From Escherichia coli (lineage in GTDB: Bacteria > Pseudomonadota > Gammaproteobacteria > Enterobacterales > Enterobacteriaceae), in assembly GCF_036507355.1 (NCBI RefSeq), contig NZ_AP027877.1: DNA of 64,000 nucleotides; one strand, 5' to 3'. The first letter of the stretch is position 1, and every line of letters starts with the position of its first letter. The position numbers and the translations under genes were made by a program. A model generated the notes under the pieces. That model did no database searches and was not told the DNA's origin. It worked only from the letters and a program-made list of their open reading frames with translations. This document shows, one piece after another, positions 12,754 through 44,514 of the stretch.

Positions 12754-14007
<1,254 letters not shown>

Positions 14008-14008
14008 C

Positions 14009-14067
<59 letters not shown>

Positions 14068-17420: not shown

Positions 17421-17447
17421 AAGGGCCGCGAAAGCGGCCCTTTTTTT
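17421..17447 (+). terminator. rho-independent terminator (GC hairpin plus T7), second copy of the tktA-distal hairpin
   Basis: AAGGGCCGCGAAAGCGGCCCTTTTTTT; the stop codon of the convergent SPFH gene overlaps the T-run. Confidence 0.65.
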
Positions 17448-18354
17448 ACTTAGTAGAGATAAACGGAACTGTGCTGCCGGGGATCATGGTATCGGGCAGT
17501 TTACCGTCCCAACGTTCGGCAGTGGTGAGGGCTACAAGTCCGGGATTATCCCGCAGAGCTTCACCGCGCAGGCGGATTGCTTCTGCTTCAGCCGCACTTT
17601 TTAAACGAATAGTTTCAGCCTCTGCCGCGCCTCTTACGCGAATAGTTTCCGCTTCTGCTTTGGCTGCCGCCAGTTTACTGTCTGCTTCTGCCTGGGCCTG
17701 AGTTACCGCTATTTGCGCCTGGATTTTCTCTGTTTCCAGATTTTGCTTACGCGTGGCAATGGCGACTTCTGCTTTCATTCGGTCTTCAATCGACTTTTCA
17801 TAAGCGTCAGAAAAATCAATATTTTCAATCTGGACCCCGTCAATTACCACTGGCCCAACAACGGCTTTGCGCATGGCATTTTGCAGATCCTGAACCAGTT
17901 TTGTACGATCCTGTACAGCGCTGATGGCGGTATATTGGCCGAAAACGTTCTCCAGTTGAGTTGGCAACTGACGGACAATCAGACGATCTTTTAATGCTTC
18001 AATGGTGTTGTAGGTGGTATAAACCGCGCCTGCTTCTGAAGGTTTAATGTGGAAGCTGACTGATACTGTCATTTGTGCCGGTTGCTGGTCGCGGCTGTAG
18101 GCCTGTAATCCCTGATAGACCACAGCCTGATTACGCGTGGAAATTTTCTCCACGCTTTCCATAAACGGGATCTTAAAACCCAGACCCGGCTCGGCAACTT
18201 TTACGATTTTTCCGTAGCGCAGCAAAATGCCGCGTTCACCTTCATTAACGGTGTAATACGAGAGAAATGGCAGCACAACCACGGCAAGCACGCCAATGGC
18301 GATAGCAAGAGATTTTTGTGGGCGAAATGAGGTTAATGAAACAGGTGCTTTCAT
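17446..18354 (-). CDS. prohibitin-like SPFH/band-7 membrane protein (302 aa)
   Basis: ORF MKAPVSLTSFRPQKSLAIAIGVLAVVVLPFLSYYTVNEGERGILLRYGKIVKV...: N-terminal TM helix, PHB domain, C-terminal Ala/Glu-rich coiled coil with tandem AEAE[TA]IR[VL][RK] repeats; not one of the K-12 SPFH genes I know (hflK, hflC, qmcA, yqiK). Confidence 0.75.
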   Translation of the reverse strand: MKAPVSLTSFRPQKSLAIAIGVLAVVVLPFLSYYTVNEGERGILLRYGKIVKVAEPGLGFKIPFMESVEKISTRNQAVVYQGLQAYSRDQQPAQMTVSVSFHIKPSEAGAVYTTYNTIEALKDRLIVRQLPTQLENVFGQYTAISAVQDRTKLVQDLQNAMRKAVVGPVVIDGVQIENIDFSDAYEKSIEDRMKAEVAIATRKQNLETEKIQAQIAVTQAQAEADSKLAAAKAEAETIRVRGAAEAETIRLKSAAEAEAIRLRGEALRDNPGLVALTTAERWDGKLPDTMIPGSTVPFISTK

Positions 18355-23376: not shown

Positions 23377-24086
23377 AAATTGAATTAACGGTGAATGGGC
23401 TGAACGTGCAAGCGCAGTACCATGATGAAGAGATAGAACGCGTGCATAAACCGTTGCTGCGTATGCTGGCGGCCTTACAGACGGTAAATCCGCAGCGCCG
23501 AACCGTGGTTTTTCTTTGCGCTCCGCCGGGGACGGGTAAATCTACCCTAACCACCTTCTGGGAATATCTCGCGCAACAAGACCCGGAGCTGCCCGCTATT
23601 CAGACGCTCCCGATGGATGGTTTTCACCATTACAATAGCTGGCTGGATGCGCATCAATTGCGCCCCTTCAAAGGCGCACCAGAGACATTTGACGTTGCGA
23701 AACTGGCGGAAAATCTGCGCCAGGTCGTGGAAGGGGATTGTACGTGGCCGCAGTACGATCGACAAAAGCATGATCCTGTTGAAGATGCGTTGCACGTTAC
23801 CGCACCACTCGTCATCGTCGAAGGAAACTGGTTGTTGCTGGACGACGAGAAGTGGTGCCAGCTTGCGCAATTTTGTGATTTCTCGATCTTTATCAATGCG
23901 CCAGCTACTGCGTTGCGGGAACGACTGGTGGGGCGCAAGCTGGCGGGAGGGTTATCGCTGGCAGACGCAGAAGCTTTTTATGACCGTACCGACGGGCCGA
24001 ATGTTCGCCGGGTGCTGGAAGAGAGTCTGCCTGCTAATTTGACTTTAATGATGACCGCTACGGGTGAATATCGTCTGGTTGATTAA
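23373..24086 (+). CDS. yggC: P-loop kinase-like protein YggC
   Basis: 237-aa ORF MKIELTVNGLNVQAQYHDEEIERVHKPLLRMLAALQTVNPQRRTVVFLCAPPGTGKSTL... with Walker A; 3' end overlapped convergently by the following ATPase gene. Confidence 0.85.
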   Translation: MKIELTVNGLNVQAQYHDEEIERVHKPLLRMLAALQTVNPQRRTVVFLCAPPGTGKSTLTTFWEYLAQQDPELPAIQTLPMDGFHHYNSWLDAHQLRPFKGAPETFDVAKLAENLRQVVEGDCTWPQYDRQKHDPVEDALHVTAPLVIVEGNWLLLDDEKWCQLAQFCDFSIFINAPATALRERLVGRKLAGGLSLADAEAFYDRTDGPNVRRVLEESLPANLTLMMTATGEYRLVD

Positions 24087-24735
24087 CGTTCCTGATTAGA
24101 CCATCTTCCAGTCGCACCACACGAGAGAAATGACGCCGGGTAAATGCGGCGTCATGACTGATTGCTACGACGCTCGTGCCTCGCTGGCGGCACTTCTCCA
24201 GCCAGCTTTCAAACACGCTCAACCAATTTTCGTCAAAATCCCGACTCGGCTCGTCCAGCAGCAATAGTGGCGGAGAGAGTGCTTCCAGGCAGGCGACGGC
24301 GACCATCCGTCGCTGCGCACTATGCAGATCCAACGGATGCGCGCTGGCAGTGTCTGCTAACTGACAACATTGCAGGGCAGCATGGGTACGTTGAGTGATT
24401 TCATCCGCCGGGCATTTTTGCAGTTTCAAACCAAATGCGATCTCGTCGGCGACGGTGCTATGAAAAAGCTGGTTTTCCGCTTCCTGAAACAGTACGCCAA
24501 TCTTTGCCGCGCGCTGGCGGTTTTTCAGGTTTTTCATCGCCTGTTGTTGCAGCATAACCGTACCGGCTGTGGGCGTAAGAAGACCTGCCATTACTCGTAA
24601 CAGCGTCGATTTCCCTGCGCCATTGTCGCCGGTCAGCGCCAACCATTCACCTTGTTTGAGTTGCAGAGAAATGTCGCAAAGACAATCCGTTGCCGCGCCA
24701 GGCCAGCGATAAGATATCTGATTTAACGTTAACAT
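24058..24735 (-). CDS. ECF/CbiO-type ABC transporter ATPase, second subunit, degenerate signature motif
   Basis: ORF 24058-24768; likely start MLTLNQISYRW at 24735; Walker A GDNGAGKST, Walker B LLLLDEP, H-loop SHD, signature LSGGQ replaced by LHSAQ. Confidence 0.75.
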   Translation of the reverse strand: MLTLNQISYRWPGAATDCLCDISLQLKQGEWLALTGDNGAGKSTLLRVMAGLLTPTAGTVMLQQQAMKNLKNRQRAAKIGVLFQEAENQLFHSTVADEIAFGLKLQKCPADEITQRTHAALQCCQLADTASAHPLDLHSAQRRMVAVACLEALSPPLLLLDEPSRDFDENWLSVFESWLEKCRQRGTSVVAISHDAAFTRRHFSRVVRLEDGLIRNVNQPDDIHP

Positions 24736-25412
24736 AGTGGCTGGAGTGCTCCGTTTTGCAATTGCCACGCTTGCTGGCAGTAGTTCAGGAAAGGTGTGCG
24801 ATGACGTTCAAAAAGAATAATCAGCGAACCACGTTCAAACGCCCAGTGTTGTAAGCGCTGCAACAGCATTTCGCTGGCCTGCGGCGTCAGGCGGCTAAAG
24901 GCTTCATCAAGAATTAATAGCTTTGGCTGCATCGCGATGGCGCAGGCGATGACCACGCGCTGTGTCTCTCCACCGGAGAGTGTTGCCGGGTGACGATGGC
25001 GCAACGGCTGGCACTCGGTCAGAGTCAGGGCGGCATCAATCCGCGCCATAATCTCTGCTTCAGCAAGACACAGATTTTCTGGCCCAAAGGCAACTTCTTC
25101 TTCCACGCTAAAGGTACAGCCGGAGAGCTGCAAATAAGGCGATTGCTGGACGAGCTGGATGGTGGCGGATTGTTCATTAAGCGGGAGATGCCCAATGGGC
25201 GTACCGAGGAGCGTCCCCGTGCCTGTTATCTCTCCTGGCAGAAAGTCCGGATACCAGCCCGCCATCAGCTGTGCCAGCGTACTTTTGCCACTGCCGTTGT
25301 CACCAAAGATGGCGACCATCCCCGGTTTGACATAGTGAAAGTCATAACAGAACGGAGGATGCGTTGAGTGTGTCGGGCAATAACGGAACTGTTCTAACGT
25401 AACCATATCCAC
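24729..25412 (-). CDS. ECF/CbiO-type ABC transporter ATPase, first subunit
   Basis: 227-aa ORF MDMVTLEQFRYC...; Walker A GDNGSGKST, signature LSGGETQRV, Walker B LLILDEA; overlaps the next ATPase gene by 7 nt. Confidence 0.78.
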   Translation of the reverse strand: MDMVTLEQFRYCPTHSTHPPFCYDFHYVKPGMVAIFGDNGSGKSTLAQLMAGWYPDFLPGEITGTGTLLGTPIGHLPLNEQSATIQLVQQSPYLQLSGCTFSVEEEVAFGPENLCLAEAEIMARIDAALTLTECQPLRHRHPATLSGGETQRVVIACAIAMQPKLLILDEAFSRLTPQASEMLLQRLQHWAFERGSLIILFERHRTPFLNYCQQAWQLQNGALQPLC

Positions 25413-26101
25413 GCTCCGAATTCTGTCAGCATCAGCAAGATCATGGTGTAACGCGCTACGCGTTGTAGGGTGCTATCGGCTGGTGCCCACAACGTTGTTC
25501 GTCGGTTGTGGATCCGAAATGCCCGCATATCCAGCGCCGCACCACGGACAGCAAGATCGTTTAGCGCATTGTGTGTTAGCGGAATAATTAACGCGGACAT
25601 CGCACGTAAACGCTGATACCAGCCCTCATCCAGCGGCACGCCGCGGGCACGCTGCGCTTCATGAATAATCGCTAATTGCCGTTTTAACTGCTCAACGACC
25701 AATAACGGCCCGGCAAACAGATAAGCGACGCCTGGCGGCAGGCGAGAAGCAAACAGAGTGCGGATAAAACATTGCACGGGGACGTACTGCATCCACAACT
25801 GTGAGGTTGAAACAATCGCCAGAATCCGCAACCAGAGCGTAATAGCATGCGTCCAACGCTCCGGCGAACGCGGCGTGCCGCTTAGCCATTCTGTTAGCCA
25901 GCCACCGTGTACCAGCCACAGCCCGGCTCCCAGCGAGAACATCAGCCAGGCGACATATTTTGCCCGCCGCCGCGTGGCCTTTAGCGCAATAAGGCAAAAA
26001 AAGGTCGCCGCGCTATAGATCGGCAAAATGGTCTGCGCGGGCAGGATAAGCGTGGTGCAGGCCGCCAATGCCCATAGTGTTAATGAGGTAAATGGATGCA
26101 T
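25394..26101 (-). CDS. ECF transporter transmembrane T component (CbiQ/EcfT-like)
   Basis: 235-aa polytopic ORF MHPFTSLTLWALAACTTLILPAQ... with Arg-rich ...EAQRARGVPL... segment typical of EcfT; its ATG directly abuts the stop of the upstream gene. Confidence 0.7.
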   Translation of the reverse strand: MHPFTSLTLWALAACTTLILPAQTILPIYSAATFFCLIALKATRRRAKYVAWLMFSLGAGLWLVHGGWLTEWLSGTPRSPERWTHAITLWLRILAIVSTSQLWMQYVPVQCFIRTLFASRLPPGVAYLFAGPLLVVEQLKRQLAIIHEAQRARGVPLDEGWYQRLRAMSALIIPLTHNALNDLAVRGAALDMRAFRIHNRRTTLWAPADSTLQRVARYTMILLMLTEFGAWIWLR

Positions 26102-26680
26102 TTAGCGCACGGCAGCCATTGCCGGAAAATGGCGCGTGGTGCGAATCGGCAGCTGGCGCAGTAAAAGCCAGACAATCACCGCTGTAAGAGTTTTATCGAC
26201 CAGGTTCGCGCCTATCACCGTAATCGCCACCGACTCCACCAGGTTTTGCCCCATCGAGTGCATCCAGGCAACGAACAAATCGGCTCCGCTACCGGTGACA
26301 CCGCCGAACAGCGCAGTACGCAGCGGTACAGCGACGACCGTTACCGCAAGCGTAATAATCACGCCGCTGACAACGACTTTTGGTAGGGTGCGAAACCAAC
26401 CCGCTCGCGCCAGCCAACCGGCGACCAGGCCGATGACCATCGCGACGGGTGCAAATGCGGCGGCGATCGGGTCGGTCAGCAATCCCCAGAGTAAATTGGT
26501 CAGTAAGCCGGTCAGCATTCCGATCACCGGACCAAGCAGTACCGCGCTAATAAGTGTGCCGATGGAGTCGAGAAATATAGGTAATTTGACCATGCTGGCC
26601 AGTTGCCCGCCGATCATATTGATGGCGATAGATATAACGATCAACACCAGTGCCTGACTGGAAAAGTGGCTACGCGCCAT
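26102..26680 (-). CDS. ECF transporter substrate-capture S component (predicted)
   Basis: ORF 26102-26779; likely start MARSHFSSQALVLIVISIAINMIGGQLASMVKLPIFLDSIGTLISAVLLGP... at 26680; about 6 TM helices; resembles ThiW/YkoE-type S components; substrate unknown. Confidence 0.6.
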   Translation of the reverse strand: MARSHFSSQALVLIVISIAINMIGGQLASMVKLPIFLDSIGTLISAVLLGPVIGMLTGLLTNLLWGLLTDPIAAAFAPVAMVIGLVAGWLARAGWFRTLPKVVVSGVIITLAVTVVAVPLRTALFGGVTGSGADLFVAWMHSMGQNLVESVAITVIGANLVDKTLTAVIVWLLLRQLPIRTTRHFPAMAAVR

Positions 26681-26702
26681 AAGAAAACCTCTCTGAAAGT
26701 AG

Positions 26703-27134
26703 TTATTTAACGGGGGAAATATGCAACTCGTCGTAACCAGAAAGCGCGCAAGGTTGGCGGCTAAACGCCAGTTCCTCAAAGCTACCGATCACCAGTTCAA
26801 GCGTGGTCCGCACGGTACAGCCGGGCATCATATGACCGCCAAGCATCGTGCCGTGTGGATCGGAAACGCAGAGATGAAGATGCTCACCACTCTGTTCCAA
26901 CGTGCCGTTTAGTGAGATCACTTCGAATGTACCGTTCAGGAGCGTGGTGCCTTCTTGCCCGGCATAGCGCAAGGCGATGTCAGTCAGGCTACCGGTACAG
27001 CCTGCAATCCAGGCGGCATGAAGTTGCTGCTGCTGTGCAAAAGCGTGTAGCTGGGAAAAAACTTCCTGCCCGGGGAGGAGGCGCAGTGCGTAAAAGCGTG
27101 CGGAGGAAGAATATGGGTAGGGCAATGTCATCAT
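26703..27134 (-). CDS. DUF296 / PPC-domain protein (143 aa), first gene of the ECF operon
   Basis: ORF MMTLPYPYSSSARFYALRLLPGQEVFSQLHAF...GEHLHLCVSDPHGTMLGGHMMPGCTVRTTLELVIGSF... fits the PPC/DUF296 pattern. Confidence 0.65.
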   Translation of the reverse strand: MMTLPYPYSSSARFYALRLLPGQEVFSQLHAFAQQQQLHAAWIAGCTGSLTDIALRYAGQEGTTLLNGTFEVISLNGTLEQSGEHLHLCVSDPHGTMLGGHMMPGCTVRTTLELVIGSFEELAFSRQPCALSGYDELHISPVK

Positions 27135-27262
27135 TGGAGTACTCCGAAACTCGGACGTATTGCGGATAATATCGACGCTGCATCAGTCATATTCTGATAT
27201 AAGTCAGGGTTTGTGACGGCACAACGAAAAGATTTTGCTACGCTTATTCGTGATTCTGCAAA

Positions 27263-27278
27263 GTGGAATAAATTCCAC
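27263..27278. promoter_or_regulatory. inverted repeat GTGGAAT-AA-ATTCCAC in the divergent ECF-operon / epd intergenic region (possible operator)
   Basis: 7-bp arms with 2-bp spacer; a second ATTCCAC half-site lies at about 27349-27355; binding factor unknown. Confidence 0.25.
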
Positions 27279-27505
27279 AGGGGCGGGGCTGAAAACGTGA
27301 CGTAAGTCAGATAATTGTTTTCTTTGACTGGACAATCATTCCTTTTATTCCACGTTTCGCTTATCCTAGCTGAAGCGTTTCAGTCGATTAAATGTTCGAC
27401 AATTAACCAATCAGTCGCAGTTTGCGACAGGTAAGGTTTCCCCGGACGATTTGCTGGATTACTCTGTCTGGCAAATTTGCTCAGGGAAAACCTTGCAGGA
27501 GATCT

Positions 27506-32139: not shown

Positions 32140-33183
32140 TTAACGCATTGTTTCATCAAGTATATTGGCAACTTTTTGCATGACTTCCCCGGCATTATCC
32201 ACGCCTTCAGTTTTTTGCTGTTCTACCCACTGCGTTTGCTCTTGCTGATAACCAATCGCTTTCTGCCAGGCGTCCAGCTCTGATTTTTTCAAATAGCGAA
32301 CCTGTGCACCTTCCTGCTCAAGCGTTTTTACCATGCTGATCAGGTTGTTATCTAATGCCTTGCCCAGCGCTTTCTCGGTTGTAATGGCCGCTCGTTGAAT
32401 AGCCTCACGATCTCTGTTATCAAGGTTTTCCCACGTTTGTTTATTCATTACCAACAGATAAACATGACCAAGCCAGAGCGAAGGGGAGAGCAACACATTC
32501 GGCGCAGCACGTTCAGCATGGATGTCATATCCGCTATCAAGATTGACCATTAAGCCATCGAGTTGTCCGTCGCGGAGTGCTGTCGTAATTTGCTCATTCC
32601 ACGGTAAGGTTACGGTTTTTGCCCCCGTATGAGTTAAATAAGCCCGGTGCCAGAAACTGGCTGTTCGCCAGGTGGTTCCCTGAAGTGCAGTCAATTTATC
32701 AATGGGCCTGGTAGAGAAAAAGCCTACCGGGTAGCCAAGGAAAAACTGTAAATTCACGATATTGTTACGCTCAAGTTCAGCGTTAAACTCGGGAATTTCC
32801 GCATATACGCGACGAAAGAATTCTACCTGACTGGCTCCATGATCCGGGCCAATAGCAAAGCTCTTGAAGATTTGATGAAGCGGTAATTGTTTCGCTGTGT
32901 ATTCCGGTACCACTATACCCATATCAGCTTTGCTACCATCACTTATTGTCGTCAGAGCGTCATAGCTGATGGCGGTTTCACCGTTCCAGTGTGGTTCGAT
33001 TTTCAAACGCCCCTGCGACTCTTTTTCAATTTCTGCAAAAAATATCTCTTTAATTATTTGTGTACGCATTCCCCCGTAGGGTTCATGGTCTGTATAACGA
33101 AGAATTTTTTCAGCGGCAACGTTGTGGGAAGATATCAGAAGTAATCCTGATACCAGAGAAAGTAAAAAGTGTTTGAATGTCAT
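32140..33183 (-). CDS. periplasmic solute-binding protein, DctP/TRAP-like, no DctQ/DctM partner nearby
   Basis: ORF 32140-33216; likely start MTFKHFLLSLVSGLLLISSHNVAAEK at 33183 (signal peptide); mature part resembles DctP-family binding proteins; no permease genes adjacent. Confidence 0.6.
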   Translation of the reverse strand: MTFKHFLLSLVSGLLLISSHNVAAEKILRYTDHEPYGGMRTQIIKEIFFAEIEKESQGRLKIEPHWNGETAISYDALTTISDGSKADMGIVVPEYTAKQLPLHQIFKSFAIGPDHGASQVEFFRRVYAEIPEFNAELERNNIVNLQFFLGYPVGFFSTRPIDKLTALQGTTWRTASFWHRAYLTHTGAKTVTLPWNEQITTALRDGQLDGLMVNLDSGYDIHAERAAPNVLLSPSLWLGHVYLLVMNKQTWENLDNRDREAIQRAAITTEKALGKALDNNLISMVKTLEQEGAQVRYLKKSELDAWQKAIGYQQEQTQWVEQQKTEGVDNAGEVMQKVANILDETMR

Positions 33184-33237
33184 CTCAGTTCCATCTGTAA
33201 TTTTATTGGTCGTCATTAATATTAAAAACCGTGAACT

Positions 33238-34167
33238 TTAACAACTAAAATCGAACTTCATATTTTTAAAGTCCAGCCACGCATTGCCAGTACCAAAATT
33301 ATACCCGCCGAAGTATTCTTCAAATTCAATATAAAAAGGTGACATTCCATCTGATATAGATTGAAATGGAACCATTGAACCACCGAGATGATCGGGTTGA
33401 TGTGCACTATGCCACTGGTGAGTTTCACATTTACTCTTTCCCTCTGCATCTTTAGAAAAATAACGAATGGACTGATATTCCGTATTATTTCTTTCTGTGG
33501 GGCTAATTCCCGCATTAGGATCAAAAGCGCGCGGCTTACATGAAATCGCCAGATTGAAAGCCAGCGACTGCTCAGGAATGGTGCCCATTTTACGGTATAC
33601 AAAATTGCTTTCAGGCGTATCTTTTGGTCTGACGCTTGCCTGAAAATAACTAAACGCACTGCCGGTGGTCATCCATTCTGGTGTATCTTGCTGGTTGCGA
33701 TAGTGATTAGGTATAAGTTCAGGCGGTTCACAAAATGGGCCGTTGAACTCTTGCTGGGTGAGTAAAATCACCGCATAAGAACAACCTAATATATCTTCCA
33801 TCCGAAATAGCCGTGGATGTCGTTGCTTTTCTGCCAGCCAGAAAACATAAAGGTCTGGATCTTCGGGGGGGTTGCAGGACTCGAAACTCTCAAACACATC
33901 CAATATTTCTTCTGTACATGGTGTTCCGCCATCGTTGTGCTCGGGCGCAACAGCAAAGAAAGATAACGCGACAATCTCTGGCCCATAAATCCGATAATCT
34001 TCTGGCAACAATAGGGTAAATCCATGATTCAATGGGAAACCATTATTTGGATCCAGCGGCCACTGTTCGGGCGTTATGCCTGGCGGTAGGCCAAAGCACC
34101 AACCTTGTTGGCGCGGTATATTTTCGCGAATAGGATGGGGCAAGAGGGTAAGATCATAAGCATGCAT
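33238..34167 (-). CDS. hypothetical cytoplasmic protein, DUF1963/YwqG-like (309 aa)
   Basis: ORF MHAYDLTLLPHPIRENIPRQQGWCFGLPPGITPEQWPLDPNNGFPLNHGFTLLLPEDY... ending ...HLGGSMVPFQSISDGMSPFYIEFEEYFGGYNFGTGNAWLDF; both ends resemble DUF1963 motifs; assignment from memory only. Confidence 0.55.
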   Translation of the reverse strand: MHAYDLTLLPHPIRENIPRQQGWCFGLPPGITPEQWPLDPNNGFPLNHGFTLLLPEDYRIYGPEIVALSFFAVAPEHNDGGTPCTEEILDVFESFESCNPPEDPDLYVFWLAEKQRHPRLFRMEDILGCSYAVILLTQQEFNGPFCEPPELIPNHYRNQQDTPEWMTTGSAFSYFQASVRPKDTPESNFVYRKMGTIPEQSLAFNLAISCKPRAFDPNAGISPTERNNTEYQSIRYFSKDAEGKSKCETHQWHSAHQPDHLGGSMVPFQSISDGMSPFYIEFEEYFGGYNFGTGNAWLDFKNMKFDFSC

Positions 34168-35839: not shown

Positions 35840-36006
35840 TACTTGTAGCCCGACGTATTCGTCGGGCTAATGCCTTTACCCGATATTGCCTCCTTTTTCT
35901 GTAATTTTCTGTAAAACCATGACGTAATCACCTATCTTTGCTCGCGGTTTCATCAAGGATAGGCTGACTGAAACGGTTAAGCGGACAAGGATGCGGGGGA
36001 GGGGGG

Positions 36007-36903
36007 ATGGACATTTTTATTTCGAAAAAGATGCGCAATTTCATTTTATTAGCGCAAACCAATAATATTGCCCGGGCGGCAGAAAAAATCCATATGACGG
36101 CTTCGCCATTTGGTAAAAGCATTGCCACGCTGGAAGAACAAATTGGCTATACGCTATTTACCCGCAAAGATAATAATATCAGCCTCAATAAAGCCGGACA
36201 GGAACTGTATCAAAAACTGTTCCCGGTTTATCAACGGCTTTCTGCGATTGATAATGAAATCCATAACTCAGGGCGTCGTTCACGAGAAATTGTGATTGGC
36301 ATAGATAATACTTATCCGACAATTATTTTCGATCAGTTGATTAGTCTCGGAGATAAGTATGAAGGCGTGACCGCCCAGCCAGTTGAGTTCAGCGAAAACG
36401 GCGTTATCGATAATCTTTTTGACCGCCAGTTAGATTTTATTATCTCCCCACAGCATGTATCTGCACGAGTTCAGGAACTGGAAAACCTGACTATCAGTGA
36501 ACTACCACCGCTGCGATTGGGCTTTCTCGTTTCTCGCCGTTATGAAGAGCGTCAAGAGCAAGAGCTGCTTCAGGAGCTGCCCTGGCTACAAATGCGCTTT
36601 CAAAACCGGGCTAACTTCGAAGCAATGATTGATGCGAATATGCGACCTTGTGGGATCAATCCAACCATTATTTATCGTCCCTACAGTTTTATGGCCAAAA
36701 TCAGCGCCGTGGAGCGCGGACATTTTCTGACGGTGATCCCGCATTTTGCCTGGCGACTGGTGAATCCGGCAACGCTGAAATATTTTGATGCGCCGCACAG
36801 GCCGATGTATATGCAGGAATATCTTTATTCAATCAGAAATCATCGTTATACCGCCACGATGCTTCAGCATATTGCTGAAGATCGTGACGGGACAAACCAT
36901 TAA
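36007..36903 (+). CDS. ygfI: LysR-family transcriptional regulator YgfI
   Basis: 298-aa ORF MDIFISKKMRNFILLAQTNNIARAAEKIHMTASPFGKSIATLEEQIGYTLFTRK... with N-terminal HTH. Confidence 0.85.
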   Translation: MDIFISKKMRNFILLAQTNNIARAAEKIHMTASPFGKSIATLEEQIGYTLFTRKDNNISLNKAGQELYQKLFPVYQRLSAIDNEIHNSGRRSREIVIGIDNTYPTIIFDQLISLGDKYEGVTAQPVEFSENGVIDNLFDRQLDFIISPQHVSARVQELENLTISELPPLRLGFLVSRRYEERQEQELLQELPWLQMRFQNRANFEAMIDANMRPCGINPTIIYRPYSFMAKISAVERGHFLTVIPHFAWRLVNPATLKYFDAPHRPMYMQEYLYSIRNHRYTATMLQHIAEDRDGTNH

Positions 36904-38378
36904 CCCAGCATCGAGCCGGTTGCAATTAAATTACGGTGTAAGTCGAAGACGTGGCTAAGATCGTGGTGAATATGTCCGCCAGGCGCATTTTCCAGATAGC
37001 GATGCAGATAATCCCGATACATAGGATGTGCACAATTATCAATGATCGTGCGGGCGCGTTGAAGCGGGGAAAGACCGCGCAGATCGGCGATCCCTTGTTC
37101 GGTGATGATCACTTTGACGCTGTGTTCGCTGTGATCAACATGGCTGCACATTGGCACGACGGTTGAGATCTTGCCTTCTTTAGCAATCGATGGGGCCATA
37201 AAGATCGACAGATACGCGTTGCGTTCAAAATCACCGCTGCCGCCGATGCCGTTCATCAGATCGACCCCGGCTACGTGCGTTGAGTTGGCATGCCCGTAAA
37301 TATCAAACTCCAGGCCGACGTTCAGAGCGATGACGCCCAGACGACGGATGATTTCCGGGTTATTGGAAATCTCCTGCGGACGCAACACAATGCGGCTGGC
37401 AAAGTAATCCATATTGTCGTAAATCTTGCGCAGGGAATCGGCCGAGATTGTCAGGCTGGAGGCGCTGGCCCCGCTGATTTTGCCGGTTTCCAGTAAATGC
37501 ACCACCGATTCCTGTAGCACTTCCGAATACATCATAAACGGAGGAATTTCCGGGTTTTCCCCCAGACGCGCCATTACCGCATTATTGATATTGCCCACGC
37601 CACTTTGCAGCGGCAGAAATTCCGGCGGAATACGCCCATGCGCCATTTCCTGCAATAAGAACGTGACCACGTTATCGGCAATCTGCTGGCACATGGGATT
37701 TTGCTTATCCAGCATATTACCGGCGTCAGGCAAGTTGGTTTCCACGACGGCGACAATCTTTTTCGGATCGATTTGCACATAGCGGGTACCGACGCGATCC
37801 ATTGCATGGAAGATCGACACGCTATTGCGCCGTGGTGGCGCGCCAGGAATCACAATATCTGCCAGTTCTGCAACGCGCGGATCGTGATAGTGATTGAGTT
37901 CAATGATCACTTTCTTCGCTCGCAGCAGCCAGGTCGGCGCATTACCGATCCCGCTGGTTAACCAGACTCGACCATCTGGTGCCAGTGCCGATGCTTCAAT
38001 GACGGCAACATCAATGTCGCCGAAGAAACCGTAATTGACCATTTGCGCCACTTCGCTCAAATGCAGGTCAACGAAACTCACCGCGCCCTGATTGATCTTT
38101 TTACGTAAACCGGACGATGTTTGATATGGCGCACGCCAGGAAACAGCATCAGCGTCAGAAAGTACATCGTCAGCGGCGGCGCTGATTGACGCACCCGTCA
38201 GCAGGCGAATTTGATACGGCTTTTTAGCCTCATGCTGTTCGTTAGCTCTGCGGGCAATCGCGGTGGGTAGGGCTTTCGGTGAACCCGCTGGGGTAAAGCC
38301 GCTAAATGCCACCATGTCGTTATGCTGGATAATTTCTGCCGCTTCATCGGCGGTCATCCTTGTCCACTGAGTTTCCAT
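36900..38378 (-). CDS. scpC: propionyl-CoA:succinate CoA-transferase
   Basis: 492-aa ORF METQWTRMTADEAAEIIQHNDMVAFSGFTPAGSPKALPTAIARRANEQHEAKKPYQ... Confidence 0.92.
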   Translation of the reverse strand: METQWTRMTADEAAEIIQHNDMVAFSGFTPAGSPKALPTAIARRANEQHEAKKPYQIRLLTGASISAAADDVLSDADAVSWRAPYQTSSGLRKKINQGAVSFVDLHLSEVAQMVNYGFFGDIDVAVIEASALAPDGRVWLTSGIGNAPTWLLRAKKVIIELNHYHDPRVAELADIVIPGAPPRRNSVSIFHAMDRVGTRYVQIDPKKIVAVVETNLPDAGNMLDKQNPMCQQIADNVVTFLLQEMAHGRIPPEFLPLQSGVGNINNAVMARLGENPEIPPFMMYSEVLQESVVHLLETGKISGASASSLTISADSLRKIYDNMDYFASRIVLRPQEISNNPEIIRRLGVIALNVGLEFDIYGHANSTHVAGVDLMNGIGGSGDFERNAYLSIFMAPSIAKEGKISTVVPMCSHVDHSEHSVKVIITEQGIADLRGLSPLQRARTIIDNCAHPMYRDYLHRYLENAPGGHIHHDLSHVFDLHRNLIATGSMLG

Positions 38379-38401
38379 TTTTACTCCTTCGTTCGCAGGG
38401 A

Positions 38402-39187
38402 TTAATGACCAACGAAATTAGGTTTACGTTTTTCGAGGAAAGCGTTCATCCCTTCCTGGTAATCTTCGCTGTCATAAACCGCGCGGCGCATCCCCTGAAT
38501 ACGTTCAAATTCATCGGAGTTCATGGTGTGTGCTTCGCCCAGTACACGCAGCTCTTCTTTGATAACGGCAATGGCTAACGGCGCTTTCTCAGAGATGTGG
38601 TGCGCCATTTGTAAGGTGAAATCTTCCAGTTCTTCCACTTCCACAACATGGTTGAGGATGCCGACAGCCAGCGCGCGCTGGGCGGTGATTGGCGAAGCGG
38701 TAAAAATCAGCTCTTTGACAATGTGGAAGCCCGCGTCGCGGGTCAGGTTGTGAATGCCGACCAGGTTATACGGGACGCCGAGGTTTACAGGCGTCATTGA
38801 GAAGGTTGAGGTACTGGCGGCGATGATCAGATCGGAACTCATGATCATTTCAAATGCGCCACCCCAAACACTACCTTCCACCATCGAAATGATCGGTTTC
38901 GGGAATTTTTGGATCATGCGGGTGATTTGACGCAATGGATCATCATAGGAGAGCGGATCGCGACCGCCAGACGGCAGTTCGTGAATATCGTGACCTGCGG
39001 AGAAGACTTTGGATCCACTCGGCGCGCGCAAAATGATACAGCGAATTTCCGGCCGGTTGAGATCGCTTAACGCCTGCATAAGATCATCAATAAAGACTTT
39101 ACTTAAGGCATTAAGTTTTCGGCCATAGTTAAACTCAATGACCGCCACTTTGTTGATAGTGGCAACGTTCACATACTGATAAGACAT
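38402..39187 (-). CDS. scpB: methylmalonyl-CoA decarboxylase (crotonase fold)
   Basis: ORF 38402-39229; start at ATG 39187 gives the 261-aa product MSYQYVNVATINKVAVIEFNYGRKLNALSKVFIDDLMQALSDLNRPEIRC... Confidence 0.92.
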   Translation of the reverse strand: MSYQYVNVATINKVAVIEFNYGRKLNALSKVFIDDLMQALSDLNRPEIRCIILRAPSGSKVFSAGHDIHELPSGGRDPLSYDDPLRQITRMIQKFPKPIISMVEGSVWGGAFEMIMSSDLIIAASTSTFSMTPVNLGVPYNLVGIHNLTRDAGFHIVKELIFTASPITAQRALAVGILNHVVEVEELEDFTLQMAHHISEKAPLAIAVIKEELRVLGEAHTMNSDEFERIQGMRRAVYDSEDYQEGMNAFLEKRKPNFVGH

Positions 39188-39197
39188 AACAATTCCT

Positions 39198-40193
39198 TTA
39201 ATCAAAATATTGCGTCTGGATAAATTCACTGAGCTGCCGCAGGCCGGTGCGCGGTGAGAGCGTATTGTTTTTGACCGCTAAAAGCGTCTGGCGGTAATAG
39301 CGATCGAAATCTTCATTCGCGAACAGGTGATTCAGTACTTCTTCTTCGGTCTGCTTACGCAGCCATTCCACCGATTGTTGTTGCCGCACTTGTTGTAAAC
39401 GACCACTGGCAGTTAGCGCGGTTTTGAAGTCGATGATGGCGTGCCAGATCTCATCGATTCCACGTTTTTCCAGTGCGCTACAAGTCAGAACCCGTGGCTG
39501 CCATTCGTCGTATTTACGTCGCAGAATACGCAGGGCACTCTCGTACATATGCCGGGCAATGGCGACATTGGTATGGTTATCGCCATCGTCTTTGTTGATA
39601 ACGATCAGATCAGCCACTTCCATCAGCCCTTTTTTAATGCCCTGCAGATCATCGCCGCCACCGGCAATTTGCAACGAGATAAAACAGTCCACCATGCGGG
39701 CGACTTCCGTTTCCGACTGCCCGACGCCAACCGTTTCGACAATCACTACGTCATAACCCGCCGCTTCGCATAACAGCATTAATTCCCGCGCTCGCTGACT
39801 GGCACCGCCCAGATGACCGGAGGATGGTACCGGGCGAATAAACGCCGTCTCGGCACGCGCCAGGTCATTCATGCGGGTTTTATCCCCGAGAATGCTACCG
39901 CCAGTGACCGGACTGCTGGGATCGACCGCAATAACCGCAACCTTTAATCCATCACGAATCAACAACATGCCAAAAGCTTCAAGAAAGGTACTTTTCCCCG
40001 CGCCGGGTGTGCCGGTAACGCCCAGTCGCAGGGCGTTACCGCAGTACGGCATAATGGCATCAAGCAGTTGCGTACTTAGCGCCTGATGACGCGGGTGACG
40101 GCTTTCCACCAGCGTCATGGCCTGGGCGAGTGTGGCACGCTCACCCTGACGTAAGCGGCGAATACTTTCTGCCAGCGTGGCTTCATTAATCAT
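39198..40193 (-). CDS. argK: methylmalonyl-CoA mutase-associated GTPase (MeaB-like)
   Basis: 331-aa [55 protein letters not shown]... with P-loop GTPGAGKST. Confidence 0.92.
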
Positions 40194-42330
40194 GATGCTG
40201 GCTTATCAGATTCAGTACGTCGCGCACACTGTCGAGCATAGGTGTACCTGGACCATAAATCGCCGCCACGCCGCGCTCTTGCAGGAAGGCGTAATCCTGC
40301 GGTGGAATGACGCCACCGGCGACTACGCAGATATCTTCGCGTCCCCATTTTTTCAGCGCTTCGACCAGTTCCGGGATCAGCGTTTTATGACCGGCAGCCA
40401 GTGAGGATGCGCCCACTACGTGAACGTCATTTTCTACTGCCAGGCGGGCGATCTCTTCAGGTGTAGAGAACATCGGGCTTAAATCTACGTCGAAACCGAG
40501 ATCGGAATAGGCGCTGGCGATCACTTTCGCGCCGCGATCGTGCCCATCCTGGCCCATTTTGGCGATCAGAATGCGCGGGCGACGACCATTGTCGGCAAGG
40601 AACTGCTCCGTTTGCGCAACAATGGCATCGAACTCGGAGGCCGATTTCTCAGATTGATGATAGCTTTGCGCAATCACGCCGGTAACACACTGGCTTGGCA
40701 CCAGATAACGGTCGAAAGCGGCTTCCAGCGCATCGGAAATTTCACCCAGGGTGGCGCGAACGCGAGCGGCATTAACAGCGGCAGCCAGCAGGTTTTCGTT
40801 ATGCTGGGCGGCGTGAGTCAGGGCGTTCAACGCGGCGGTTACGGCGGCATTATCACGGGTGGCGCGAATGCGTTCCAGCGAAGCAATTTGCTCGTTACGC
40901 ACCATCACGTTGTCGATCTCAAGTACATCGGTTTCGTCTTCGTGATCCAGTTTGTACTTGTTGACACCAACGATGACACGCTTGCCCTGGTCGATCAGCG
41001 ACTGTTCGCGCGCTGAGGCCTCTTCGATCATTCGTTTTGGCAGACCTGCTTCGATCGCTTTCGCCATGCCACCGGCTTCGTCGATCTGTTGGATAATAGC
41101 TCTGGCTTGTTTGACGATTTGATCGGTCAGCGACTCAATGTAATAGGATCCGGCCAGTGGATCGACGGTGCGGCAGAGTTCTGATTCTTCCTGGATGATG
41201 ATCTGGGTGTTGCGGGCAATGCGTGCTGAGAAATCGGTAGGCAAACCAAGCGCTTCGTCAAAGGCGTTGGTATGCAGTGACTGAGTACCGCCCAGCGTCG
41301 CAGCCAGTGCTTCAATGGTGGTGCGGATAACGTTGTTATACGGATCCTGTTCAGTCAGGCTCCAGCCTGAGGTCTGGCAGTGGGTACGCAGCGCCAGTGA
41401 TTTCGGGTCCTGTGCGCCAAATCCACTGACCGCTTCGCTCCATAAATAACGTGCCGCACGCAACATGGCGACGTTCATAAACAGATCCATGCCGATGCCG
41501 AAGAAGAACGACAGGCGAGGAGCGAAGTCATCAATTTTCAGTCCGGCAGAGATTGCTGCTTTGATGTACTCAATCCCATCAGCGAGCGTAAATGCTACCT
41601 GCTGCACGCAGTTGGCACCCGCTTCACCCATGTGGTAACCGCTGATACTGATGGTATTAAATCGCGGCATGTTGCCGGAACACCAGGCGATGATGTCGGC
41701 GATAATGCGCATTGACGGTTTTGGCGGGTAAATATAGGTGTTGCGGCAGAGGTACTCTTTGAGGATATCGTTCTGAATGGTGCCGGTCAGTTTATCAGGT
41801 GTAACACCTTGCTCTTCCGCGGCGACGATATAAAACGCCAGTACTGGTAGCACTGCGCCATTCATGGTCATCGAAACCGACATTTTATCCAGCGGGATCT
41901 GGTCGAACAGGACTTTCATATCTTCCACGGTGTCGATAGCGACGCCCGCTTTGCCGACGTCGCCCGCCACGCGCGGGTTATCGGAGTCGTAGCCTCGGTG
42001 GGTGGCAAGGTCAAACGCAACGGAAAGACCTTTTTGCCCGGCGGCCAGGTTACGGCGATAAAAAGCGTTGGACTCTTTTGCTGTTGAAAAACCAGCATAC
42101 TGACGGATGGTCCACGGTTGGGCGGTATACATAGTGGCACGCGGGCCACGAACGTAGGGCGGCAAACCAGGAAGGGTACCTGTCACCTCCAGATTATCGA
42201 GATCGGCTTCGGTATACAGCGGCTTGATGGCGATCCCTTCCGCGGTTTGCTGAACCAGCGAGTCGACAGTTTTCTCCCGACGGCTCAATTCCTTGTTGGC
42301 AAGCTGTTGCCACTCCTGCACGTTAGACAT
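40186..42330 (-). CDS. scpA: B12-dependent methylmalonyl-CoA mutase (Sbm)
   Basis: ORF 40186-42351; start at ATG 42330 gives the 714-aa product [49 protein letters not shown]...; 8-nt overlap with argK. Confidence 0.93.
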
Positions 42331-42533
42331 TATTTGCTCCGTAAAACGCAATCAAAATGAGGGTATTTGCGCCTACGGTGAGCTTTTTACGTGGGTTTGT
42401 CGCCAGCAAAAAAAATGCATTCAGACGTCGTTTTTTGCCGCCTGAGATTTGTCTATTTTGTGATGTGATTCAAGGAATACAAAAAGAAGTGAGGACAACG
42501 CCTGATATGTGCTATCAGGCATTATTTGATGGA

Positions 42534-43427
42534 TTAATCCTGACGAAGGACTTTGTGACCATAATCGAGTAACGCATCAGTGACTTTACGCATCATGCGG
42601 CTTTCAGGAGCAAAGCGGTGCCAGTAGAGCATCCGTCGTTGAAATAGCCCAGGCGTTAAGTCAATCAGTTTACCGCTGGCCAGCTCTTTCTCGATTTGCA
42701 GGTGCGGGATCATACAGCAGGTGGTGCCCTGGCGAGCAAGTTGTACGAACGCTTCTGAAGAATTAACGATATGGCAGGGCACGCTGCCTGGAGGCAGATC
42801 GAAGTTTTGCTGCAAAAAGGCCTGGTGCATATCGTCAAGATGGTCAAACGCGACCACTGGCGCTTTCAGTAATGCCGAACGCGTTACGCCGTTAGGGAAA
42901 TATTTTTCGGCAAAGGGTTTTGAGCTGACGAACAGATAGTCGAGCGCACCAAGTTTATCGACAAGACAACTCGGCAGCGCCTGATGTTGAATACTCACCG
43001 CGCCGACCACTTCGCCGCGACGCAGACGTTCCTGAGTGCGGGTTTCATCTTCTACCTGCAAGTTGAGGCGGATAGGCGAATCAGCCAACACAGGAGCCAG
43101 TGCAGGAAGCAACCACGTCGCCAGACTGTCGGCGTTGACCGCCAGTGAAAGCAGCAGCGGAGTCGAACCGGTTTGTTCATCGCCCAGCCACTCTTCTTCC
43201 AGCAACTCCACCTGGCGCAGCAGTGCCAGCAGTTTTTGCCCTTGTTCCGTCGGGCGCGGCGGTACGGTACGCACCAACAGCGGCTGCCCGAACATATTTT
43301 CCAGTTGCTTAATGCGCTGTGAGACGGCTGATTGTGTAATGCACAGCTTTTGTGCCGCGCGCTCAAATCCTCGTTCACGTATCACCGCATCCAGTGCCTG
43401 TAATGTTCTGTAGTCCGGGCGTTTCAT
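42534..43427 (-). CDS. argP: LysR-type regulator ArgP (IciA)
   Basis: ORF 42534-43493; start at ATG 43427 gives the 297-aa product [48 protein letters not shown]... Confidence 0.92.
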
Positions 43428-43568
43428 TGCTGTTGTCTGCTCCTGGTAAATGCTTTTTCCTGCACTATGACACAATTTTGTGTCAGGTTGCATATACCGA
43501 AGCCGTCGGCGGGTAACATTTGTATTCGTGGTTAAACGCGCAGCTTAAAAGATCAGGGATTTGCGCTA

Positions 43569-43799
43569 ATGCATTTCGCTCAGCGAGTTCGCGCCCTGGT
43601 TGTGTTGAATGGCGTGGCGTTATTGCCTCAATTTGCCTGTAAACAGGGGCTTGCGAACGGTGAATTGGTGCGCCTGTTTGCACCGTGGAGCCGCATACCC
43701 AGACCATTGTATGCTTTATTTGCGGGGCGAAAGGGGATGCCCGCCATTGCGCGATATTTTATGGATGAGTTAACCACGCGGCTTGCCAACGGGGTCTGA
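43569..43799 (+). pseudogene. yqfE: LysR-family regulator remnant (C-terminal fragment only), yqfE-like
   Basis: 76-aa ORF MHFAQRVRALVVLNGVALLPQFACKQGLANGELVRLFAPWSRIPRPLYALFAGRKGMPAIARYF... resembles the C-terminus of a LysR substrate-binding domain; no HTH-bearing N-terminus. Confidence 0.55.
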
Positions 43800-43854
43800 A
43801 TCGCTTTTTTTGTATATAATGCGTGTGAAATTTCATACCACAGGCGAAACGATC

Positions 43855-44514
43855 ATGACGCAGGATGAATTGAAAAAAGCAGTAGGATGGGCGGCACTTC
43901 AGTATGTTCAGCCCGGCACCATTGTTGGTGTAGGTACAGGTTCCACCGCCGCACACTTTATTGACGCGCTCGGTACAATGAAAGGCCAGATTGAAGGGGC
44001 CGTTTCCAGTTCAGATGCTTCCACTGAAAAACTGAAAAGCCTCGGCATTCACGTTTTTGATCTCAACGAAGTCGACAGCCTTGGCATCTACGTTGATGGC
44101 GCAGATGAAATCAACGGCCACATGCAAATGATCAAAGGCGGCGGCGCGGCGCTGACCCGTGAAAAAATCATTGCTTCGGTTGCAGAAAAATTTATCTGTA
44201 TTGCAGACGCTTCCAAGCAGGTTGATATTCTGGGTAAATTCCCGCTGCCAGTAGAAGTTATCCCGATGGCACGTAGTGCAGTGGCGCGCCAGCTGGTGAA
44301 ACTGGGCGGTCGTCCGGAATACCGTCAGGGCGTGGTGACCGATAATGGCAACGTGATCCTCGACGTCCACGGCATGGAAATCCTTGACCCGATAGCGATG
44401 GAAAACGCCATAAATGCGATTCCTGGCGTGGTGACTGTTGGCTTGTTTGCTAACCGTGGCGCGGACGTTGCGCTGATTGGCACACCTGACGGTGTCAAAA
44501 CCATTGTGAAATGA
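43855..44514 (+). CDS. rpiA: ribose-5-phosphate isomerase A
   Basis: ORF 43783-44514; start at ATG 43855 gives the 219-aa product [53 protein letters not shown]... Confidence 0.95.

Follow-up and report, generated by a model that had tools for sequence, protein, structure and literature searches.

An intact scpA-argK-scpB-scpC (sbm) operon in an Escherichia coli strain and its comparison with K-12

Fermentation of succinate to propionate in Propionigenium modestum and Veillonella involves a biotin-dependent, Na+-pumping methylmalonyl-CoA decarboxylase. The overall chemistry, from succinate through succinyl-CoA, methylmalonyl-CoA, and propionyl-CoA to propionate, is shared with Escherichia coli, but ScpB of the latter is soluble, biotin-independent, and of the crotonase fold (PDB 1EF8), so that its activity builds up no ion gradient; the E. 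coli operon has no gene for an epimerase. In Propionibacterium shermanii, Methylobacterium extorquens, and human mitochondria, as in E. coli, the methylmalonyl-CoA mutase is paired with a G3E GTPase (MeaB/MMAA), and the DxHxxG motif and the substrate-site blocks are held in common. The P. shermanii mutase is an alpha/beta heterodimer, whereas that of E. coli has one subunit type; its genetic partners are a decarboxylase of the crotonase type and a CoA-transferase, in place of an epimerase and a carboxyltransferase. The closest described system is the K-12 operon scpA-argK-scpB-scpC (sbm-ygfD-ygfG-ygfH, b2917-b2920); the biochemistry of its Scp proteins was reportedly described by Haller et al. 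in 2000, the source of the proposed succinate-to-propionate mechanism.

We conclude, with a probability of roughly 0.94, that a locus within the window (the whole 64,000-nucleotide stretch of E. coli DNA that was analysed) is the orthologue of the K-12 sbm operon in a different E. coli strain and that its four genes are all intact. No observation spoke against this identification. From argP to srsR, 7,421 bp were colinear with K-12 MG1655, with 66 substitutions and no indels. The two operons share gene order, gene lengths, an 8-nt overlap, 10- and 23-nt gaps, the argP flank, a 4-nt convergent overlap with srsR, and a 203-bp upstream region; nucleotide identity per gene was 98.5 to 99.5%. Inside the four genes 53 substitutions led to 10 amino acid changes, and one further substitution lay in the argK-scpB spacer. 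RefSeq has the same gene order and annotation for thousands of E. coli genomes, and all four exact protein sequences are present in public databases under the same names. The sbm operon is already well described, being textbook knowledge with biochemical and structural characterisation, and this copy adds nothing new; without a structural difference from K-12, it has little discovery value and is useful as an annotation check.

On the basis of the open reading frame listing and the comparison with MG1655, four genes were placed on the minus strand: scpA (sbm) at 40186-42330 (2145 nt, 714 residues), argK (ygfD, meaB) at 39198-40193 (996 nt, 331 residues), scpB (ygfG) at 38402-39187 (786 nt, 261 residues), and scpC (ygfH) at 36900-38378 (1479 nt, 492 residues). 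Each begins with ATG, ends with TAA, contains no internal stop, and has the length of its K-12 orthologue. They run in one direction, in the order scpA-argK-scpB-scpC, between argP and srsR, joined by overlaps or short gaps: the scpA and argK frames share 8 nt (40186-40193, ATGATTAA), argK and scpB are separated by 10 nt, and scpB and scpC by 23 nt. The preliminary description had reported four full-length, tightly linked genes at 36900-42330 with an 8-nt scpA/argK overlap, and these coordinates proved exact. The longest mechanical reading frames begin farther upstream for scpA (TTG at 42351) and scpB (GTG at 39229); we chose the ATG codons at 42330 and 39187, which are preceded by GGAG and AGGA, respectively, and agree with the K-12 annotation, that of scpB agreeing as well with the crystallised 261-residue protein 1EF8. 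Internal terminators between the genes were considered and rejected, as the 15 hairpins found against 9.1 ± 3.2 expected were not clearly enriched and none fell in the 10- and 23-nt gaps. The four reading frames are not a chance set, since all of their products scored above curated NCBIfam equivalog or subfamily cut-offs.

ScpA matched the equivalog model NF006944 for adenosylcobalamin-dependent methylmalonyl-CoA mutase over residues 5-713 (1252.2 bits, cut-off 876), with TIGR00641 covering the N-terminal acyl-CoA mutase barrel (28-547) and TIGR00640 the C-terminal B12-binding domain (583-713). It aligned over nearly its whole length with the solved structures of the human and P. shermanii mutases (E about 1e-270). 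The B12-binding DxHxxG motif reads DGHDRG at 595-600; the histidine of this motif, here His597, is the lower axial ligand to cobalt. In the structure-based alignment Tyr78, Arg196, and His233 lay within conserved blocks identical to those of the human and P. shermanii enzymes, for the latter of which we take Tyr89, Arg207, His244, and His610 to be the substrate-site and cobalt residues. The gene was 99.1% identical to b2917, and 3 of the 714 residues differed from K-12 (H27Q, D494N, and V537A; 99.6% amino acid identity). A protein this close to the K-12 enzyme would be expected to interconvert succinyl-CoA and (R)-methylmalonyl-CoA with adenosylcobalamin, K-12 ScpA having been described as an (R)-specific mutase (PMC5512728).

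ArgK was assigned to the MeaB/ArgK G3E-family GTPases (NF006958, 494.3 bits, cut-off 329) and aligned end to end (residues 1-331) with E. coli YgfD (PDB 2P67). It carries a P-loop, GTPGAGKS, at 61-68, ETVGVGQ at 153-159, and NKDD at 200-203, and differs from K-12 at four positions (T54A, E81D, A116T, and H222R). The same preliminary description had counted all four genes as belonging to the B12-dependent succinate-to-propionate pathway; their identities, order, and integrity stood, but argK could not be kept as a pathway step, because its product is a G-protein chaperone of the mutase and not a pathway enzyme. A physical and functional interaction of ArgK with ScpA is suggested by the overlap of their genes, which may couple their translation, and by the title that PMC3850637 gives in citing Froese et al. 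2009.

ScpB was identified as a biotin-independent methylmalonyl-CoA decarboxylase of the crotonase fold (NF008506, 486.8 bits, cut-off 257) and aligned over residues 1-261 with PDB 1EF8 (E. coli MMCD) and 6N92. It differs from K-12 by a single residue, V9A, and retains His66 and Tyr140, which presumably have an active-site role in the 1EF8 enzyme. ScpC matched both the propionyl-CoA:succinate CoA-transferase subfamily (TIGR03458, 754.5 bits, cut-off 658.7) and the ScpC model NF053853 (601.8 bits, cut-off 500), and its nearest solved homologues were acetyl-CoA hydrolase/transferase family proteins and succinyl-CoA:acetate CoA-transferases. Class I CoA-transferases have their catalytic glutamate in a (Y)SE motif and carry in addition a GxGGxxD motif; ScpC has YSE at 284-286 and GIGGSGD at 377-383. 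It differs from K-12 at two positions (N11D and V277E) and is identical to the scpC products of strains ES5, A16, and L1_E925 (all WP_000449941.1).

These assignments predict the following cycle. ScpC would move CoA from propionyl-CoA onto succinate. The resulting succinyl-CoA would be isomerised to methylmalonyl-CoA by ScpA, with adenosylcobalamin as its cofactor and the help of the GTPase ArgK/MeaB, and ScpB would decarboxylate the methylmalonyl-CoA to propionyl-CoA, from which ScpC would free propionate as it recharged the cycle, for a net conversion of succinate to propionate and CO2. Activity would require imported cobalamin; E. coli does not synthesise B12 de novo. The activity of the enzymes in this strain and any physiological flux through them are inferred. 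Closure of the cycle is another matter. The operon has been called an incomplete pathway, since ScpA yields (R)-methylmalonyl-CoA, ScpB is said to use the (S) form, and no epimerase is encoded; when expressed in minimal medium, it yielded propionate from glucose only after a methylmalonyl-CoA epimerase had been supplied (PMC5512728). The cycle as drawn may thus not close in vivo, and the operon, though intact, might by itself achieve no conversion of succinate to propionate because the (R)-methylmalonyl-CoA from ScpA cannot feed ScpB. Its true role could then be auxiliary, for example in handling propionyl- or methylmalonyl-CoA from amino acid or odd-chain catabolism, or it might run only given another source of (S)-methylmalonyl-CoA. 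In keeping with such a role, expression of the operon raised amino acid degradation to propionate and permitted isoleucine degradation, whereas glucose-derived propionate needed the heterologous epimerase (PMC5512728), and we found no epimerase gene within or adjoining the operon. Other engineering studies, however, obtained propionate or 1-propanol from glucose with the sbm genes alone (PMC3850637), and the stereospecificity of ScpB was argued from other decarboxylases and is not settled (PMC5512728). The sequence is equally compatible with a complete cycle, and we give the epimerase-limited alternative a chance not far short of even.

The region between argP and scpA (42331-42533, minus strand), which comprises the operon promoter and 5' leader, was 100% identical to that of MG1655 over its 203 bp; this was the promoter comparison that had been proposed for the locus, and it rules out a strain-specific promoter change. 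A terminator scan located a GC-rich hairpin at 42500-42520, directly after the argP stop codon and upstream of the scpA leader, with an 8-pair stem (GCCTGATA...TATCAGGC) that is unchanged in K-12 and is likely the argP terminator. No sigma-70 consensus-like promoter was detected by the promoter scan of the 203 bp, and the idea that the leader holds a cobalamin riboswitch, or a structured RNA of another kind, was rejected after a search of 35900-43600 on both strands gave no Rfam match at E ≤ 1. In K-12 a ChIP-seq peak of sigma-S RNA polymerase is listed upstream of scpA (PMC4447067), and the operon might be expressed from a sigma-S promoter. The K-12 operon has been termed silent or hardly expressed (PMC5512728, PMC3850637), in agreement with the earlier remark that expression is poor in laboratory E. 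coli. Because the upstream region is that of K-12, we expect this operon to share the weak, condition-dependent expression of its K-12 counterpart, and the native control region gives no grounds to expect better.

The full operon is present in about 79% of 5,425 complete E. coli genomes; intactness is therefore the majority state and not remarkable in itself. About 21% of these genomes carry one recurrent deletion of 4,273 bp that leaves scpA fused with the end of scpC, and unlike them this strain is genetically fully equipped for B12-dependent methylmalonyl-CoA metabolism. The breakpoints, defined by blastn of two loci (L003 and L004) against the window and by the junction sequence, fall in an imperfect 15-nt repeat on the minus strand, with the left one in scpA (41312-41326, CCGCACCACCATTGA) and the right one in scpC (37039-37053, CCGCACGATCATTGA, 13 of 15 positions identical). 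The deletion carriers are apparently mostly human extra-intestinal isolates. A search of the searchable library for literature linking the operon or its loss to phylogroup returned nothing relevant.

Among the intact alleles compared, the operon is under purifying selection. With six alleles compared, dN/dS between this strain and the five other intact ones was 0.04 to 0.10, and synonymous changes outnumbered non-synonymous ones by 94 to 12 against L1_E925 and by 88 to 11 against M114. We estimate values in this range to be typical for functional E. coli genes, and these alleles are accordingly not decaying. An operon described as silent or hardly expressed, and missing 4,273 bp in about one-fifth of genomes, could nevertheless be an evolutionary relic that merely happens to be intact in this strain, goes unused, and is heading to decay, and further independent lesions have arisen in strain MB51 (an IS1-associated deletion) and in the O145 strain RM12522-C8 (a scpA frameshift and an internal stop in meaB). 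The excess of synonymous changes speaks against such a fate, as do the colinearity with K-12 over 7.4 kb and the full length retained in most genomes; the remnant of the deletion lineage, by contrast, has gained extra gaps of 31 and 53 bp. We consider a relic unlikely. Purifying selection where the operon is intact, together with a single recurrent or shared deletion in about one-fifth of genomes, would instead mean a real, niche-dependent function in nature, for example in B12-dependent succinate or propionate metabolism in the gut, with one major lineage able to do without it or under selection against it. This reading is tentative, and we would sooner expect it to fail than to hold.

A substitution particular to this strain might also disable the system silently despite the open frames, the candidates being ArgK H222R and ScpA D494N, neither of which occurs in the other five intact alleles compared. 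Residue 222 of ArgK is arginine here and histidine in both K-12 YgfD (2P67) and M. extorquens MeaB, but none of the GTPase motifs G1 to G4 includes it, and ScpA position 494 is variable among mutases (Gln in human, Glu in M. tuberculosis, and Pro in P. shermanii). Moreover, the exact ScpA protein occurs on 978 public contigs and the exact ArgK protein on 40, a spread hardly to be expected of a dead allele given the purifying selection observed. We regard a disabling substitution as very improbable.

Downstream of the operon, srsR (ygfI; 36007-36903, plus strand) encodes a LysR-family regulator (NF047842, 634 bits, cut-off 425) and is convergent with scpC, the two overlapping by 4 nt. An internal stop in srsR was found in the SA186/EC-TO143 clone and in RM12522-C8, and decay of srsR along with the operon was considered as a hint of regulation. 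It was rejected, as four further carriers of the deletion (HH45, MS7163, VTB97074v, and 201609) have an intact srsR; this, with the scp genes going unmentioned in the SrsR target paper, supports no general link between srsR and the operon. An ECF transporter island at 24.0-27.3 kb was likewise considered as a cobalamin importer tied to the operon, and no link could be made; its S component matched only the CD3073 family, for which the substrate is undefined, and did so below the cut-off (134 versus 180 bits). The flanks also differ from those of K-12 in that a TRAP-binding-protein gene and a hypothetical gene lie between mscS and argO here, while the K-12 region is without both.

In the six-frame ORF list, the minus strand has four large ORFs, all in one direction, within 36900-42351. 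With the K-12 MG1655 annotation as a guide, these were assigned to scpA (40186-42330, 714 aa), argK/meaB (39198-40193, 331 aa), scpB (38402-39187, 261 aa), and scpC (36900-38378, 492 aa). Each gene matches its K-12 counterpart exactly in length, begins with ATG, ends with TAA, and is free of internal stops; the end of scpA shares 8 nt (ATGATTAA) with argK, and spacers of 10 and 23 nt separate argK from scpB and scpB from scpC, respectively. The preliminary description of four full-length, closely linked genes with an 8-nt scpA/argK overlap was borne out, and its coordinates were exact when compared with the ORF list and the MG1655 annotation. The LysR gene srsR (ygfI; 36007-36903, plus strand) is convergent to scpC and overlaps it by 4 nt. 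The longest mechanical ORFs start farther upstream for scpA (TTG, 42351) and scpB (GTG, 39229); GGAG and AGGA precede the ATG starts of these two genes, and with its ATG start scpB agrees with the crystallised protein of 261 residues.

All four proteins scored above the curated cut-offs of NCBIfam models: ScpA with NF006944 (methylmalonyl-CoA mutase; 1252 bits, cut-off 876), ArgK/MeaB with NF006958 (494 bits, cut-off 329), ScpB with NF008506 (methylmalonyl-CoA decarboxylase; 487 bits, cut-off 257), and ScpC with both TIGR03458 (754.5 bits, cut-off 658.7) and NF053853 (601.8 bits, cut-off 500). The human, M. tuberculosis, and P. shermanii mutases align to almost the full length of ScpA (E ~1e-270), PDB entry 2P67 (E. 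coli YgfD) aligns with ArgK residues 1-331, and 1EF8 and 6N92 align with ScpB residues 1-261. ScpA keeps the cobalamin-binding DGHDRG motif at 595-600 and has Tyr78, Arg196, and His233 within conserved blocks; the P-loop GTPGAGKS and NKDD motifs are kept in ArgK, His66 and Tyr140 in ScpB, and YSE and GIGGSGD in ScpC. The roles of these motif residues would be those described for the published structures. The accepted succinate-to-propionate scheme reportedly originates with Haller et al. in 2000: ScpC would move CoA from propionyl-CoA onto succinate, ScpA with adenosylcobalamin would rearrange succinyl-CoA to methylmalonyl-CoA, ScpB would decarboxylate the latter to propionyl-CoA, and ScpC would set propionate free. 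ArgK is a chaperone GTPase with no pathway step of its own, and E. coli depends on exogenous corrinoid. The pathway has been argued to be incomplete, in that the ScpA product is the (R)-enantiomer and the decarboxylase is thought to act on the (S)-enantiomer, with propionate from glucose seen only once an epimerase was added (PMC5512728); another study reported products without epimerase (PMC3850637).

Between the argP and srsR start codons (7,421 bp), the window differs from MG1655 by 66 substitutions and no indels. The promoter comparison with K-12 that the preliminary description had suggested showed 100% identity across the 203-bp argP-scpA intergenic region; outside the genes, only a single base differs, in the argK-scpB spacer. 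A scan of the scpA leader found no sigma-70 consensus-like promoter, and the operon region gave no match to any Rfam family, cobalamin riboswitches among them; a ChIP-seq study (PMC4447067) includes a site upstream of scpA among its putative binding sites for sigma-S RNA polymerase. On the basis of the identical upstream region, the operon would be expected to behave in this strain as in K-12. The amino acid changes relative to K-12 are H27Q, D494N, and V537A in ScpA, T54A, E81D, A116T, and H222R in ArgK, V9A in ScpB, and N11D and V277E in ScpC. The exact proteins are already public under the expected names on 978 (ScpA), 40 (ArgK), and at least 1,000 contigs each (ScpB and ScpC); these alleles circulate and are not sequencing errors. 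The observation is real and its reading correct, and it is wholly ordinary: the operon, its position, and its architecture were already known, the control region is that of K-12, and the protein alleles were previously deposited. Only one by-product is of mild interest, a population pattern of which we found no discussion in the searchable literature: intact operons are under purifying selection, set against one widespread repeat-bounded deletion.

For the four concatenated genes, Nei-Gojobori dN/dS was 0.04-0.10 against five other intact alleles, a range based on few pairwise comparisons and not on a tree; versus the allele of strain L1_E925, 94 synonymous and 12 non-synonymous differences were counted. 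The low ratios fit the complete lack of indels and speak against neutral decay. Two substitutions, ScpA D494N and ArgK H222R, were absent from all five comparators. Position 494 of ScpA is variable among solved mutases, and at position 222 of ArgK, K-12 YgfD and M. extorquens MeaB both have His.

Among 5,426 complete E. coli genomes, the operon was matched in 5,425. In 4,275 (79%) the match spans 80% or more of the operon, so the intact form is the majority state, and in ~1,150 it spans less; loss is lineage-specific. In 1,114 genomes, 80% or more of the junction segment of one deletion allele (locus L003) was matched, and counting one-place versus two-place matches of a junction probe gave ~1,143 carriers. 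The deletion removes 4,273 bp bounded by imperfect 15-nt repeats (13/15 identical), CCGCACCACCATTGA in scpA (left repeat, 41312-41326) and CCGCACGATCATTGA in scpC (right repeat, 37039-37053), and joins the first ~1.0 kb of scpA to the final 153 nt of scpC. Its common form is ~97% identical to the window and has two more gaps of 31 and 53 bp. Several sampled carriers came from human urine, and our guess is that the lineage lies in phylogroup B2. Comparison of the junctions in loci L003, L004, and L011-L014 placed the same 4,273-bp junction on two backgrounds, one with ~97% identity to the window, in roughly 1,100 genomes, and one with ~99% identity, in HH45 and one other genome, which suggests either recurrence at the 13/15 repeat or transfer by recombination. 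The SA186/EC-TO143 clone, a deletion carrier, also has an internal stop in the adjoining srsR. Strain MB51 has a separate lesion, an IS1-associated deletion. In E. coli O145 RM12522-C8 the operon DNA is near full length, scpA is frameshifted with ~62 bp missing, and both meaB and srsR contain internal stops, an independent route of decay; the share of genomes whose operon is functional is therefore overestimated by DNA coverage alone.

The closest scp operons, those of ES5 and A16 (99.7-99.8%), both have a ~3-kb argP-rpiA insert with ferredoxin reductase, DUF1471, azoreductase, and LysR genes. At this place the window has a short K-12-like arrangement, where K-12 annotates the LysR remnant yqfE. 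The neighbourhood is mosaic at 43428-43855 in comparison with loci L001 and L006. Two genes between mscS and argO (32140-34167, minus strand) are missing from the K-12 region. One encodes a TRAP-type substrate-binding protein of 358 aa (TRAP_S1, 61.5 bits), and the ORF list shows no genes for a TRAP permease next to it; the product of the other, a hypothetical protein of 309 aa, matched no NCBIfam model. GC content is low (36%) at 33000-33499. A 3.3-kb accessory island between yggC and epd (24017-27285; genes 24058-27134, minus strand) is missing in A16. It comprises genes for two ECF-type ATPases and for a candidate CD3073-family ECF S component (134 bits, under the 180 cut-off), together with two genes whose positions correspond to those annotated in strain TUM13936 as the T component and as a PPC-domain DNA-binding protein. 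No link of this island to cobalamin supply was found, its S component matching only the CD3073 family and only below the cut-off. Downstream of tkt, the segment 17284-18654 contains a prohibitin/HflC-like ORF (17446-18354, minus strand, 302 aa) that is missing in A16 and annotated as 'prohibitin family protein' in TUM13936. A ~1.28-kb insertion relative to A16 (~12787-14063) contains an ORF (12978-13958, plus strand, 326 aa) for an IS110-family RNA-guided transposase (NF033542, 256 bits), whose best matches are labeled 'IS110-like element IS621 family transposase' in RefSeq; the element was matched in 2,245 of 5,426 genomes, at a median of 5 places per matching genome.
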